Part shown: piece by piece, positions 16,118 to 64,000 of the stretch
Position numbering within the stretch: position 1 is the first letter of the stretch
Layout of the letters: every line of letters starts with the position of its first letter
Assembly (NCBI GenBank): GCA_964016885.1
Contig: OZ024757.1
Location: forward strand, 4,774,001 to 4,838,000
Direction of reading: 5' to 3'
DNA length: 64,000 bases
From: Eledone cirrhosa
Lineage: Eukaryota
Made by a program: the position numbers and the translations under genes
Notes under the pieces: model-generated
The model's database searches: none
What the model saw: the letters and a program-made list of their open reading frames with translations, nothing else
What the model was told of the DNA's origin: nothing

Positions 16118-28250
<12,133 letters not shown>

Positions 28251-34620: not shown

Positions 34621-34625
<5 letters not shown>

Positions 34626-34791
34626 AGTATGTATGTATACGTACATACATATATGTATACAGACGTACAGTAGCATGTATATATGTGTGCCTGATACGTG
34701 CATATATATATGTGTGCCTGTATGTATATATATACATGGTACTGTACGTCTGTATACATATATGTATGTACGTATACATACATACTTACAT
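34621..34791. repeat. Foldback: ~52-63 bp inverted arms inside a (TA)n tract
   Basis: ATGTAAGTATG...GACGTACAGTA at 34621 is the reverse complement of 34740-34791. Confidence 0.85.
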
Positions 34792-34845
34792 TTAAGTAAT
34801 TGCCGTACTAAGAGTGAGAAATGAAATTTCGTTTCATTCTATTCC

Positions 34846-34999
<154 letters not shown>

Positions 35000-35075
35000 A
35001 TAAAGAAAAAAAGATGAAATCGAAAATGCAACTGGAGTTTTATTTAAAAAAAATATATATATATTTATTTGGTTC

Positions 35076-35111
35076 CTTTACCGATTTCGCAGTTCTTCTG
35101 CTTTTCAAAAG
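35076..35111 (-). ncRNA. Minimal type-I hammerhead-like motif, U3-A8 core, weak stem I (family Z, copy A)
   Basis: CTT-TTGAAAA-GCAG-AAGAA-CTGC-GAAA-TCGG-TA-AAG. Confidence 0.55.
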
Positions 35112-35379
35112 TAGAGTTGAGATGGAGGGTTGTGGTTTTTCTCACATCGTTTAGTCATATATATATTTAAAGGTTAAACAAGGTTCAATGAATAAATCAA
35201 TGAATAAAGTTTTACAATAGATTAGAAGCACTCCACAGTATGGGTTTTCCGGAGTTATTAATATTAATTCAAAATATTAACATATATATATATATGACTA
35301 AACGACTCAATGTCTTCCTCCAGTGTTTTAAACTTGAGAATATGGGCGATGTTTATTTAGAGTTAGGGGCTTATATACA

Positions 35380-35472
<93 letters not shown>

Positions 35473-41496: not shown

Positions 41497-42981
<1,485 letters not shown>

Positions 42982-51987: not shown

Positions 51988-52050
<63 letters not shown>

Positions 52051-52281
52051 GAAACACACAGATACATGCGGACACACACATATATACATGAATGCATCCG
52101 CACCCAACTGTGAGTTAAGGGTGCCAACTTCACCGATGCTGCTCAATGAATGACTGGGACAGACCAATTCAGTTTGAACCAGACTGAACCAGTATCAGAG
52201 TTAAAAATACATTATGAAGAGAGAAGAAACATTTAGATATAATTAGTAATAAAATGTATCATACCTAAACTGTTCCTAAAT

Positions 52282-52369
52282 TCCTCGACTACGTAGTTTC
52301 GTGGCATAAACAAAAACAATATATCAAAGATATAGAGTCCTTGCGAGGTCTGCCGACTTATCAAGAGGA
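52282..52369 (-). ncRNA. Type-I hammerhead, U3-A8 variant (X copy 1)
   Basis: TCCTC-TTGATAA-GTCGGCA...TGCCAC-GAAA-CTACGTAG-TC-GAGGA; GUC cleavage triplet. Confidence 0.82.
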
Positions 52370-52872
52370 TACCTCATTTTACTAGTCTCAAGAACGCGTC
52401 TACACGACGTGAGAAAGAATCCCAAAAGGCGGAGGGGGAGATAGTCACGCGATATAACGGTCGAGAAACAGAGCTAAGCCTCTTATAACCACGAAGAAAA
52501 TACCACGGAGGCGGAGGGGGTATTCATATCGAGGCCGTAGAAGAGGTAGTGAAGAAGGCGAGAAGTATGAGTAATGGAAGCTTTCCAGTTGTCCCCACAC
52601 TTCAAAGATTGCTCGACCAGAGGGAGTTATTAATATATTTAGAAACACACAGATACATGCGGACACACACATATATACATGAATGCATCCGCACCCAACT
52701 GTGAGTTAAGGGTGCCAACTTCACCGATGTTGCTCAATGAATGACTGGGACAGACCAATTCAGTTTGAACCAGACTGAACCAGTATCAGAGTTAAAAATA
52801 CATTATGAAGAGAGAAGAAACATTTAGATATAATTAGTAATAAAATGTATCATACCTAAACTGTTCCTAAAT

Positions 52873-52960
52873 TCCTCGACTACGTAGTTTCGTGGCATAA
52901 ACAAAAACAATATATCAAAGATATAGAGTCCTTGCGAGGTCTGCCGACTTATCAAGAGGA
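52873..52960 (-). ncRNA. Type-I hammerhead, U3-A8 variant (X copy 2)
   Basis: Identical motif 591 bp away. Confidence 0.82.
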
Positions 52961-53002
52961 TACCTCATTTTACTAGTCTCTTGAGACTAGTAAAATGAGG
53001 TA

Positions 53003-53090
53003 TCCTCTTGATAAGTCGGCAGACCTCGCAAGGACTCTATATCTTTGATATATTGTTTTTGTTTATGCCACGAAACTACGTAGTCGAGGA
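53003..53090 (+). ncRNA. Type-I hammerhead, U3-A8 variant (X inverted copy)
   Basis: Identical motif on the plus strand. Confidence 0.82.
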
Positions 53091-53156
53091 ATTTAGGAAC
53101 AGTTTAGGTATGATACATTTTATTACTAATTATATCTTAATGTTTCTTCTCTCTTC

Positions 53157-53306
<150 letters not shown>

Positions 53307-53379
53307 AAGAAAAAAAGATGAAATCGAAAATGCAACTGGAGTTTTATTTTAAAAAAATATATATATATTTATTTGGTTC

Positions 53380-53415
53380 CTTTACCGGTTTCGCAGTTCT
53401 TATGCTTTTCAAAAG
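53380..53415 (-). ncRNA. Minimal hammerhead-like motif, U3-A8 core (family Z, copy B)
   Basis: CTT-TTGAAAA-GCA-TAAGAAC-TGC-GAAA-CCGG-TA-AAG. Confidence 0.55.
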
Positions 53416-53992
53416 TGGTTTTTCTCACATCGCTTAGTCATATATATATTTAAAGGTTAAACAAGGTTCAATAAATAAATCATTGAATAAAGTTTTACAA
53501 TAGATTAGAAGCACTCCACAGTATTGGTTTTCCGGAGTTATTAATAATAATTCAAAATATTAACATATATATATATATGACTAAACGACTCAATGTCTTC
53601 CTCCAGTGTTTTAAACTGGAGAATATGGGCGATTTTTATTTAGAGTTAGGGGCCTTATACAGACATATATGTATATGTATATATATATATGTATATATAT
53701 ATAAAAACAAATAACGAAACGAAATTAAATTTCGTTTCATTTGTAACTCACTTTTGTATGACTGACGCTTAAACAATTAAGTTAAAAATGTACATCCACA
53801 TATGTATACTGAAATACTAGTATGCATATGAATACACACACGTATACATATGTAGATGTACCGAGTTTTTCACTGGTCACTTTACTGTGAGTGTCCAGCT
53901 ATTCTGTATGTAAACACACAGACAAACCGGTTTTTAGAGTCATACTGGTTTTTGAGGAAACACCTTTCCTCTATTCTCCAGAAAGCCAGACA

Positions 53993-54045
53993 AGGAATAT
54001 TGAACTAGTTTCGATGTTGTTACATCTCATCAGCAATATTTACCT
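53993..54045 (-). ncRNA. Canonical minimal type-I hammerhead (Y copy 1)
   Basis: AATATTG-CTGATGA-GATGT-AACA-ACATC-GAAA-CTAG-TT-CAATATT. Confidence 0.9.
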
Positions 54046-54458
54046 ATCTTCCGGCCTCTCTAGAGAATCGTAAAAGCACATATCGTTATATGCTTTTTCT
54101 ATGAAAATTAGTAGTGGGCAGACTAATTTGCATAGAGCGTGAGTACGTACCGGTTCAACGGAGACGATAAAAACAAATAACGAAACGAAATTAAATTTCG
54201 TTTCATTTGTAACTCACTTTTGTATGACTGACGCTTAAACAATTAAGTTAAAAATGTACATCCACATATGTATACTGAAATACTAGTATGCATATGAATA
54301 CACACACGTATACATATGTAGATGTACCGAGTTTTTCACTGGTCACTTTACTGTGAGTGTCCAGCTATTCTGTATGTAAACACACAGACAAACCGGTTTT
54401 TAGAGTCATACTGGTTTTTGAGGAAACACCTTTCCTCTATTCTCCAGAAAGCCAGACA

Positions 54459-54511
54459 AGGAATATTGAACTAGTTTCGATGTTGTTACATCTCATCAGC
54501 AATATTTACCT
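54459..54511 (-). ncRNA. Canonical minimal type-I hammerhead (Y copy 2)
   Basis: Identical motif, +466 bp. Confidence 0.9.
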
Positions 54512-54861
54512 ATCTTCCGGCCTCTCTAGAGAATCGTAAAAGCACATATCGTTATATGCTTTTTCTATGAAAATTAGTAGTGGGCAGACTAATTTGCATA
54601 GAGCGTGATTTCAGTATACATATGTATTTCAGTATACATATGTGGATGTACATTTTTAACTTAATTGTTTAAGCGTCAGTCATACAAAAGTGAGTTACAA
54701 ATGAAACGAAATTTAATTTCGTTTCGTTATTTGTTTTTATCGTCTCCGTTGAACCGGTACGTACTCACGCTCTATGCAAATTAGTCTGCCCACTACTAAT
54801 TTTCATAGAAAAAGCATATAACGATATGTGCTTTTACGATTCTCTAGAGAGGCCGGAAGAT

Positions 54862-54914
54862 AGGTAAATATTGCTGATGAGATGTAACAACATCGAAACT
54901 AGTTCAATATTCCT
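54862..54914 (+). ncRNA. Canonical minimal type-I hammerhead (Y copy 3)
   Basis: CTGATGA at 54874-54880, GAAA at 54895-54898, 7-bp stem I, 5-bp stem II, palindromic stem III. Confidence 0.9.
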
Positions 54915-55327
54915 TGTCTGGCTTTCTGGAGAATAGAGGAAAGGTGTTTCCTCAAAAACCAGTATGACTCTAAAAACCGGTTTGTCTGTGTGTTTACATA
55001 CAGAATAGCTGGACACTCACAGTAAAGTGACCAGTGAAAAACTCGGTACATCTACATATGTATACGTGTGTGTATTCATATGCATACTAGTATTTCAGTA
55101 TACATATGTGGATGTACATTTTTAACTTAATTGTTTAAGCGTCAGTCATACAAAAGTGAGTTACAAATGAAACGAAATTTAATTTCGTTTCGTTATTTGT
55201 TTTTATCGTCTCCGTTGAACCGGTACGTACTCACGCTCTATGCAAATTAGTCTGCCCACTACTAATTTTCATAGAAAAAGCATATAACGATATGTGCTTT
55301 TACGATTCTCTAGAGAGGCCGGAAGAT

Positions 55328-55380
55328 AGGTAAATATTGCTGATGAGATGTAACAACATCGAAACTAGTTCAATATTCCT
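55328..55380 (+). ncRNA. Canonical minimal type-I hammerhead (Y copy 4)
   Basis: Identical motif, +466 bp. Confidence 0.9.
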
Positions 55381-55615
55381 TGTCTGGCTTTCTGGAGAAT
55401 AGAGGAAAGGTGTTTCCTCAAAAACCAGTATGACTCTAAAAACCGGTTTGTCTGTGTGTTTACATACAGAATAGCTGGACACTCACAGTAAAGTGACCAG
55501 TGAAAAACTCGGTACATCTACATATGTATACGTGTGTGTATTCATATGCATACTAGTATTTCAGTATACATATGTGGATGTACATTTTTAACTTAATTAT
55601 ATATATATATATGTA

Positions 55616-55662
<47 letters not shown>

Positions 55663-56631: not shown

Positions 56632-57539
56632 ATGGAGGACGTTAAACACTTGGACATTTCTACCACACCTGTTTCTACCAATATAGATACAGTTACAGAG
56701 ACATACAGTGGTGAGAAACTTTACCTAGTGAAACATGTACTGAACAAGGATCATTATACAGAAATATTCCTGAATATAGCTGTGAGATTTGTAGGAAAAC
56801 TTTCTCACCAGAAGATGAATTATCTACACATAAAAGAACACACACTAAAGATAAACCCTATCACTGTCAAATATGTGAGAAATCTTTCACTTCGAAATCA
56901 GATCTTGTTAGATATATACGTACTCACACTGGAGTAAAACGTTTCCACTGCGAAATATGTGGGAAAGCTTTTGCTGAACATTTTAGTGTTGTACTTCATA
57001 AAAGAACACACACTGGAGAGAAACCCTATCATAGTGAAATATGTGGGAAATCTTTTGTGACAAACATTTATTTAACTGCACATATAAGAACACACACTGG
57101 AGAGAAACCATATCATTGTGAAATATGTGGGAAATCTTTTGTATACAACAGTAATTTCAATGCACATAAAAGAACACACAGTAGAGAAAAGCATTATGAT
57201 TGTGAAATATGTGGGAAATCTTTCTTTCAGAATGCTAGTCTCATTAACCATAGATATAACCACACTGGAATAAAGCCCTTCCATTGTGAAATATGTGAGA
57301 AATCTTTTGTCAGGGGCGATGACTTGATTAGACATAAGCGAACTCACACTGGAGAGAAACCCTTTTACTGTGAAATATGTGGGAAGTATTTCGTACAAAG
57401 TGGTAATTTGATTGTGCATAAAAGATCACATACTGGTGAAAGACCTTACCACTGTGAAATATGTGGGAAATCTTTTATTAGGAATAGTAACTTAAATAAA
57501 CACAAACAAACACACACAAGAGGGAAACATTTTAACTAA
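56632..57539 (+). pseudogene. C2H2 ZNF gene, 9 fingers, single 1-nt frameshift near 56721
   Basis: MEDVKHLDIS... N-terminus; AAA CTT TA CCT AGT versus AAA CTT CTA TCT AGT in paralogs; frame then open to 57539; two fingers lack a Zn ligand. Confidence 0.85.
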
Positions 57540-63262: not shown

Positions 63263-64000
63263 CACATCTGTAATGTTATTTATGTATATAGATATATAGA
63301 TATATAACATATCTGTAATGTTATTTATGTGTATATATATATATATACAACATATCTGTAATGTTATTTATGTATATATATATATACAACATATCTGTAA
63401 TGTTATTTATGTATATATATATATATAACATATCTGTAATGTTATTGATATATATATATATATACAACATATCTGTAATGTTGGCTTAGTGGTTAGAGCA
63501 TTGGCCTTGCAATCGAAAGGTTGTGAGTTCAATTCTCAGACCAGGTGATGTGTTGTTTCCTTGTGCAAGACACTTTTTCTCACATTGCTCCAGTTTACTC
63601 AGCTGTAGAAATGAGATGATAGGGACTGGGGTCCATATCATTCCACTGCAAAGTGGTCGTGGAGGTGCCACGGCAAAAAAGCACCCAGCCCACACTGTAA
63701 ATGAGGTTGGTGTTAGGAAGGGCATCCAACTGTAGAGATCAAGCCAGAATCAGTTTCCGTCCCACCCTTGCAAGCAGGGAAAAGCGGACGTAAAATGAAA
63801 TGATGAAATGATGATGATATAACATATCTGTAATGTTATTTATGTATATATATATATATATATATAACATATCTGTAATGTTATTTATATATATATATAT
63901 AACATATCTGTAATGTTATTTATATATATATATATAACATATCTGTAATGTTATTTATATATATATATATAACATATCTGTAATGTTATTTATGTATATA
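62930..64000. repeat. Compound repeat AACATATCTGTAATGTTATTTATG + variable (TA)n
   Basis: ~20 units, interrupted by a SINE. Confidence 0.9.
63482..63818 (+). mobile_element. tRNA-derived SINE with RTE-derived tail
   Basis: TGGCTTAGTGG A-box, GAGTTCAATTC B-box; tail CCGTCCCACCCTTGCAAGCAGGGAAAAGCGGACGTAAAATGA matches the RTE 3' end at ~10605-10650. Confidence 0.88.

Follow-up and report, generated by a model that had tools for sequence, protein, structure and literature searches.

The window analysed here is a stretch of 64,000 nucleotides of Eledone cirrhosa DNA (contig OZ024757.1, positions 4,774,001 to 4,838,000 of the forward strand). At positions 53701–55598 it contains two back-to-back arms with four type I hammerhead motifs, placed inside a (TA)n tract that is read directly from the sequence on the left (53665–53700) and on the right (55599–55653). 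The 3′ ends of both arms adjoin (TA)n in this copy. The period of 466 is exact over 53701–54608 on the minus strand and over 54624–55598 on the plus strand, with zero mismatches among the copies. The base that follows the predicted cleavage site (window 54905) was taken as unit position 1. In this numbering, the left arm (908 bp, 1.95 units) comprises unit positions 327–466, 1–466 and 1–302, its 3′ end lying at the distal fixed site (302); the right arm (975 bp, 2.09 units) comprises 186–466, 1–466 and 1–228, and its 3′ end lies at the proximal fixed site (228–233). The first-pass annotation, made from the sequence alone, had described four identical 466-bp units, two on each strand, with the ribozyme strands facing outward into (TA)n flanks. 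The period, the identity, the two hammerheads per strand, the orientation and the flanks were all found as described, but the arms are permuted multimers and not whole units.

The 5′–5′ joint of the arms (54608–54643, plus strand) contains unit 188–205 twice, with one base shared with the left arm. This is the 18-bp duplication noted earlier at the inversion point; it likely results from slippage during copying and not from duplication of the target. The segment between the two fixed ends, hereafter the tail (unit 229–302; 53701–53774 on the minus strand; 70–74 nt), is terminal on one arm only and contains the hairpin GAAACGAAATT. One complete cleavage-to-cleavage monomer of 466 nt, the predicted circular RNA, occupies 54905–55370 of the plus strand. 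The longest ATG ORF within the element has 50 aa and lies on the antisense strand, in agreement with the earlier statement that no credible ORF is present. An ORF encoding RT and GIY-YIG is absent from the element at 53701–55598, and therefore it is not an autonomous member of the Penelope-like group. The GC content of the unit is approximately 35%, which is below the 50% expected of non-LTR retrozymes. The hairpin-rich character of the unit was borne out by folding, since the 466-nt sequence folds far better than its shuffled versions (z −11.6 as a linear molecule; z −12.2, from 40 shuffles, as a circular one). As both flanks consist of (TA)n, a target-site duplication is unreadable at this locus and at the other loci of the family.

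The CTGATGA cores are located at 54874 and 55340 on the plus strand and at 54499 and 54033 on the minus strand. The corresponding type I hammerheads occupy 54863–54913 (predicted cleavage after 54904, at GUU) and 55329–55379 (after 55370) on the plus strand, as well as 54460–54510 (between 54469 and 54468) and 53994–54044 (between 54003 and 54002) on the minus strand. Helix I consists of 7 bp, a 2-nt bulge and a long extension, and helix II of 5 bp; in the circular fold prediction, both pair with a probability of 0.63–1.0. Helix III is the weak palindrome ACUAGU, for which no pairing is predicted in the monomer. According to the Rfam comparison, the best ribozyme match of all four copies is Hammerhead_HH9 (RF02275; 36.5 bits, E 9.1e-7, model positions 1–77). 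This score is below the gathering threshold of 52, and no hammerhead family reached gathering in the window or in four other loci. The cleavage triplet is GUU in the window copy, and among the family junctions GUU is found in 249 of 402 and GUC in 142 of 402; GUU is a slower cleavage triplet. The earlier assignment to type I was upheld, with two corrections, the GUU triplet and the weakness of the palindromic stem III. Hammerheads with a weak palindromic helix III are described as working in dimers (PMC4209133; PMC7229834). The helix III found here matches that described for axolotl HHR_Amex1 (one pair and a palindromic tetraloop), which is active as a dimer, and only one of nine tested Xenopus retrozyme dimers is described as cleaved (10.64898/2026.07.22.740005).

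Conservation of the core among genomic copies, on which the earlier reading depended, was observed in approximately 110 loci: variability in the core is 0.7–0.9% compared with 4–5% in most other parts of the unit. In about half of these loci one pair of helix II is swapped from A-U to U-A, and compensatory changes are present in helices I and II. When the sister family described below is included, two-sided changes are found at 6 of 16 stem pairs, and 93% of cells pair versus 35–49% with slid partners, in a set of 18 sequences from two families that represents few independent events. Judging from these comparisons, constraint on the ribozyme core extends across subfamilies.

Family size and paired 3′ ends

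Genome counts (3.0 Gb) were made with sequence patterns. There are 921 exact copies of a 45-nt motif of the window and 9,585 matches of the 20-nt ribozyme-junction motif; at unit 302, 6,007 internal read-throughs and 2,014 exact joins to (TA)n were counted. The family has at least 2,014 insertion ends in the genome. In a gapped-pattern count, the 357 forward matches are usable, and the minus-strand count is inflated by the variable gap. The copies are 88–100% identical to the window unit, subfamilies diverge by up to approximately 12%, and arrays can be shorter than one unit, the largest having about 31 and at least 70. The element had been called recently inserted, which is true of the window copy but not of the family as a whole.

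A sister family with units of approximately 420–540 bp and weak sequence likeness to the 466-bp family gave 24,671 motif matches. It has the GUA triplet and U-U at the base of helix II (L040:1570–2150; L253–L282), and paired ends were seen in two loci read. A short two-armed copy of this family, lacking the ribozyme, lies at window 34624–34848. Together, the two families contain more than 34,000 hammerhead motifs missed by Rfam gathering scores. In addition, ATGCAAAT is present at window 55240–55247 and 54774–54781 (unit 336–343); it is intact in 265 of 291 copies and occurs in part of the sister family. As the octamer of snRNA promoters, it is a lead for a putative internal promoter in the unit. 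Sequencing runs X4–X20, labelled as 17 different organisms, contain near-identical sequence, some at low depth; for these matches, related species, trace DNA and transfer are indistinguishable.

Arm ends were analysed in 128 stretches, a sample of about 130 of the more than 2,000 insertions and nearly all from one contig. L158 (a duplicate of L157), L177 (anchor unresolved), 11 short loci (either duplicates or superseded by longer fetches) and off-site hits shorter than 40 bp were dropped. Among the 220 arms, 112 end at unit 300–302, 101 at 223–234 and only 7 elsewhere, and TA follows 210 of the 220 ends, most loci having been chosen by one TA-joined end. Since most stretches were picked by one end, the partner end serves as the test. 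Of 87 inverted pairs, 81 combine a distal with a proximal end, none uses the same site twice, and 6 have one off-site end. As for the single arms, 41 were scored (5 of 46 were skipped), and in 15 of them a short second arm was recognised, in every case belonging to the opposite end class. In loci chosen by internal motifs, 16 of 17 and 16 of 19 ends lie at the fixed sites and the (TA)n target bias is seen as well; 11 such loci added five more mixed pairs, one of them completed by L062. At L283, one proximal end adjoins (CAT)n.

These data change the reading of the two outer ends at 53701 and 55598. They had been taken as arbitrary points of a circle, whereas they belong to two fixed sites used family-wide (213 of 220 arm ends). 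The accompanying proposal, priming at both sides of a cut, agrees well with the one-of-each use of the sites in the 81 pairs. The fixed sites are approximately 70 nt apart (unit 228–233 and 302), and neither poly(A) nor a LINE-like 3′ tail is present at the arm ends. An extension at one end only, together with two fixed 3′ ends, is the “tail” signature of Penelope elements. The 5′ ends are scattered throughout the unit and slightly enriched at unit 1–22 (19 versus 9.5 expected, an interval chosen post hoc). A 5′-end pile-up exactly at the cleavage site proved to be an alignment boundary effect; after refinement, 4 ends lie at unit 1–5 versus 2.1 expected. The arms mostly abut within a few bases, and their 5′–5′ joining involves little or no homology.

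Penelope-like elements and known systems

The genome contains 10,596 GIY-YIG candidates, the long frames of which carry RT, GIY-YIG and the Neptune CxxC linker. Neptune-type long-frame elements have hammerhead variants with palindromic helix III, and their ends lie in (TA)n. All three inverted autonomous elements studied (L135, L138 and L147, encoding RT, GIY-YIG and the Neptune CxxC linker) have a long end paired with a short one, and their tails, read by eye, measure approximately 40–62 nt. In one inverted autonomous insertion, the arms are 99.7% alike over 3.3 kb. A blastn search with the unit against 50 GIY-YIG loci (of the 10,596 candidates) found no homologous terminal repeat; the hits were nested family copies, the sister family and low-complexity sequence. 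The unit tail resembles one Neptune tail in reverse, but not significantly so; across 16 tests, the best value was 10 of 300 shuffles. As a separate observation, the hammerheads in the Neptune terminal repeats of L133, L138, L139, L149 and L127 have U3-A8 in place of C3-G8, and some have GCAA for GAAA. At L135:1775–5062, a Neptune-type frame is open throughout and encodes a candidate protein of about 1,025 aa, counted from the earliest plausible Met.

Penelope-like elements are described as having partial tandems, inverted 5′-truncated copies, a tail of 30–40 bp often at one end and a (TA)n bias (PMC8557442). The family shares with Neptune-clade elements the 5′-truncated partial tandems, the inverted 5′-truncated arm, the one-end tail, the (TA)n bias and a palindromic-helix-III hammerhead upstream of the 3′ end (PMC8557442; PMC4209133). 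Unlike these elements, it has no ORF, and its helix I is extended and carries a conserved bulge, whereas theirs is described as a minimal hammerhead; the tail of 70–74 nt is also longer than the described 30–40 nt and than those of the autonomous elements of the same genome. In its insertion ends, the 466-bp family seemingly behaves like a non-autonomous Neptune element. The closest experimental counterpart is Poseidon from Anolis, for which in vitro work describes two internal RT starts that bound a stem-loop tail, cutting and extension of both target strands, and an AT-rich target (PMC11167929). Unprocessed RNA is described there as the main substrate and the ribozyme as dispensable; in our family, the template looks monomer-derived. 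In the same work the start site did not differ between strands, whereas a strict one-of-each use is found here.

With animal non-LTR retrozymes (PMC7229834; 10.64898/2026.07.22.740005) the repeats have in common non-coding, low-GC tandem units with one type I hammerhead each, a self-paired predicted circle, thousands of copies and the presence of Penelope-like elements in the same genome. The unit of 466 nt is just above the range of 150–450 given in PMC7229834 and within the range of 51–972 given in 10.64898/2026.07.22.740005. On these features, the 466-bp repeats are considered a new family of non-LTR retrozymes. The spread of animal retrozymes has been hypothesised to proceed by copying of the circle by an autonomous RT, with Penelope-like elements as a candidate (PMC7229834), and the Penelope link has been described from co-occurrence and the phylogeny of terminal repeats (10.64898/2026.07.22.740005). 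In the present family, the link is an insertion signature, and no homologous autonomous repeat was found in the 50 loci compared. Fixed RT starts, the tail, inverted arms and (TA)n targeting, all seen here, are not reported in the available text of these two sources, and no report of fixed paired ends, tails or paired arms in retrozymes was found in the literature, mostly outside subscription journals. Thousands of junctions of this family show the insertion signature of Penelope elements, and its unit variants allow a test of circular versus linear templates. It also sharpens the Penelope mechanism, because two strands appear to use two start sites as a strict pair and to share one template sequence. 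With both young Neptune elements and a 466-nt RNA that has two defined starts, the genome provides a compact in vitro system.

Template and proposed mechanism

Comparison of arms within and between loci showed that in 56 of 67 pairs no other arm is closer than the partner arm, with a median difference of 0.26% versus 3.08%; one site is arm-specific (L214). In 76 of 81 pairs the distal arm extends past the proximal start, which indicates that both arms copy the same template sequence in an overlapping manner. L1 twin priming likewise involves two primers, one RNA and an inverted 5′–5′ joint, but its two copies derive from different stretches of a linear RNA, whereas the arms analysed here copy the same sequence. 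Classical twin priming with non-overlapping arms is ruled out by this overlap. The cleavage site is crossed by 174 of 220 arms, and of 402 unit junctions 391 are exact, none has an insertion and two have one-base deletions, so the template was either circular or an uncleaved multimer. The same junctions disfavour template jumping from one cleaved linear monomer to another.

The two remaining templates were compared using unit variants, with a mask over unit positions 1, 2, 104–112, 129–139, 211–221, 465 and 466 as well as the arm ends. In 54 loci with 20,768 paired sites, 7 in-register shared variants were found against 145 private differences, whereas about 72 would be expected if the sources were as mixed as the present arrays. 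In addition, the units are identical within 12 of 53 multi-unit loci, although these loci differ from one another at 4–49 sites; internally uniform arrays of up to 10 blocks each have their own fixed haplotype. The scarcity of in-register variants and the uniform arrays point to a bottleneck of one unit followed by multimerisation, and a circle would give both directly. These variant patterns favour a circular monomer over a linear read-through transcript as the template. The circular template proposed in the first-pass annotation is therefore probably correct, although its original argument from the end positions is lost, the ends being fixed. The 7 in-register variants, clearest in L164 and L202, mean that a mixed multimeric template or a template switch is needed in some insertions, and the arm-specific site of L214 likewise counts against the circular monomer; very young source arrays, gene conversion or assembly polishing could partly account for the homogeneity. 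Cyclic contigs of 495–496 nt in runs X6 and X7 were discarded as evidence for circles because a collapsed tandem repeat gives the same result. The long arrays of L190, L209 and L187 contain alternating or period-4 unit variants, corresponding to higher-order repeats or multimeric templates.

Taken together, the element is probably a non-LTR retrozyme inserted by a Penelope-type (Neptune) RT/GIY-YIG protein that copied the predicted 466-nt circle from both cut strands; for the family, mobilisation by Penelope-type double target priming is likely. By analogy with known retrozymes, a multimeric transcript would self-cleave via paired hammerheads and be ligated into a circle. The protein would then cut both strands of a (TA)n tract, the target for which the bias is directly observed. 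One 3′ end may prime at unit 302 and the other at 228–233, with 1–5 nt of TA-like pairing, as the fixed ends and their one-of-each pairing suggest. Both copies would run upstream on one template, each passing the start of the other as well as the cleavage site; their median length is approximately 550 nt, and some make many rounds; the shared haplotype and the crossing are seen in the arms, and a single circular molecule with strand displacement would account for them. Finally, the 5′ ends of the unfinished copies would be joined to each other, and the joints read show little homology or none. Later, some long arrays may have expanded at the DNA level, to which their periodic variants point. 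A more specific version, which we rate slightly below an even chance, has a dimer of the Penelope-type protein holding one circular ribozyme RNA by its 70-nt tail, with two reverse transcriptions starting from fixed sites, one per cut strand, and both going round that circle by strand displacement. If so, the family would document, in the genome, target-primed reverse transcription by rolling circle on an RNA circle that the element makes itself, and the strict pairing of the two sites would account for the tail and inverted arms seen in Penelope elements generally.

The same double priming could also have used a linear multimer that was left uncleaved after transcription from homogeneous, very young arrays; the ribozyme and any circle would then be side products. 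The frequent crossing of the cleavage site with only a mild enrichment of stops near it (19 versus 9.5 at unit 1–22), the existence of a few in-register variants and the described activity of unprocessed RNA as a substrate (PMC11167929) are in line with this template. We nevertheless consider it unlikely, given that in-register variants reach about a tenth of expectation, that uniform arrays with their own haplotypes would need a one-unit bottleneck followed by renewed multimerisation, and that the ribozyme core is constrained across subfamilies.

Copying of the RNA into spontaneous (TA)n breaks, or by a non-Penelope RT, without GIY-YIG cutting, appears very improbable. A partner with a homologous repeat was indeed not found among the 50 GIY-YIG loci, target duplications are unreadable in TA repeats, and the proximal end at L283 entered (CAT)n. 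However, strict one-of-each use of two sites is unexpected for break repair and is common to autonomous Neptune elements of the same genome, and the ends lack poly(A) or a LINE-like 3′ tail.

Still less credence is given to a spread at the DNA level, by rolling circle or unequal crossover, in which the repeat would be a satellite or a Helitron-like DNA element and the ribozyme a relic. Arrays with about 31 and with at least 70 units, the periodic variants of L209 and L190, which are typical of unequal crossover, and the local amplification from a terminal repeat discussed in 10.64898/2026.07.22.740005 would suit it. This process accounts for the growth of some arrays but not for insertion, and it is opposed by the strand polarity (fixed 3′ and scattered 5′ ends on the ribozyme strand), the outward arms, the dispersal to more than 2,000 sites and the conserved core. 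Helitron-like elements have fixed 5′ and 3′ termini with a 3′ CTRR; in the 466-bp family the 5′ ends are scattered and the 3′ ends are T-rich. Finally, a fold-back read chimera or assembly error has a negligible chance of explaining the inversion: the joint 54608/54624 is absent among the joints listed from short-read contigs, but the two arms differ in their 5′ and 3′ ends and in their flanks and so do not mirror each other, the plan is common to 87 loci, and 14 other strand-flip joints in short-read contigs of two runs show that the back-to-back plan is not a long-read chimera. The inversion reported earlier is thus real. Short-read contigs also show TA after unit 302.

Neighbouring features

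Three Penelope-type insertions are nested in the TA region at 52–55.6 kb of the window. A second element built on the plan of the 466-bp copy lies at 52046–53165; its unit has 590 bp, of which 1.6 units lie on one strand, and it has a 187-bp inverted arm and (TA)n on both sides. A motif scan detected no standard hammerhead core in this element, and 99% copies of it are present in L056 and L128. Non-coding pieces at 53301–53665 and 34997–35383, of a kind very common in the fetched loci, share their last 115 bp with an autonomous Neptune family. These 115 bp comprise a hammerhead variant with a UUGAAAA core and the proximal end.

Other features of the window were also recorded. Positions 16118–27871 are occupied by an 11.7-kb satellite with a 16-bp unit, extreme strand skew and telomere-like composition. 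Tandem C2H2 zinc-finger coding stretches lie at 41705–42972 and 56715–57528 within larger duplicated blocks that carry 61- and 72-bp minisatellites. A tRNA-like match at 63480–63541 (30.9 bits, just over gathering) is possibly the head of a SINE.
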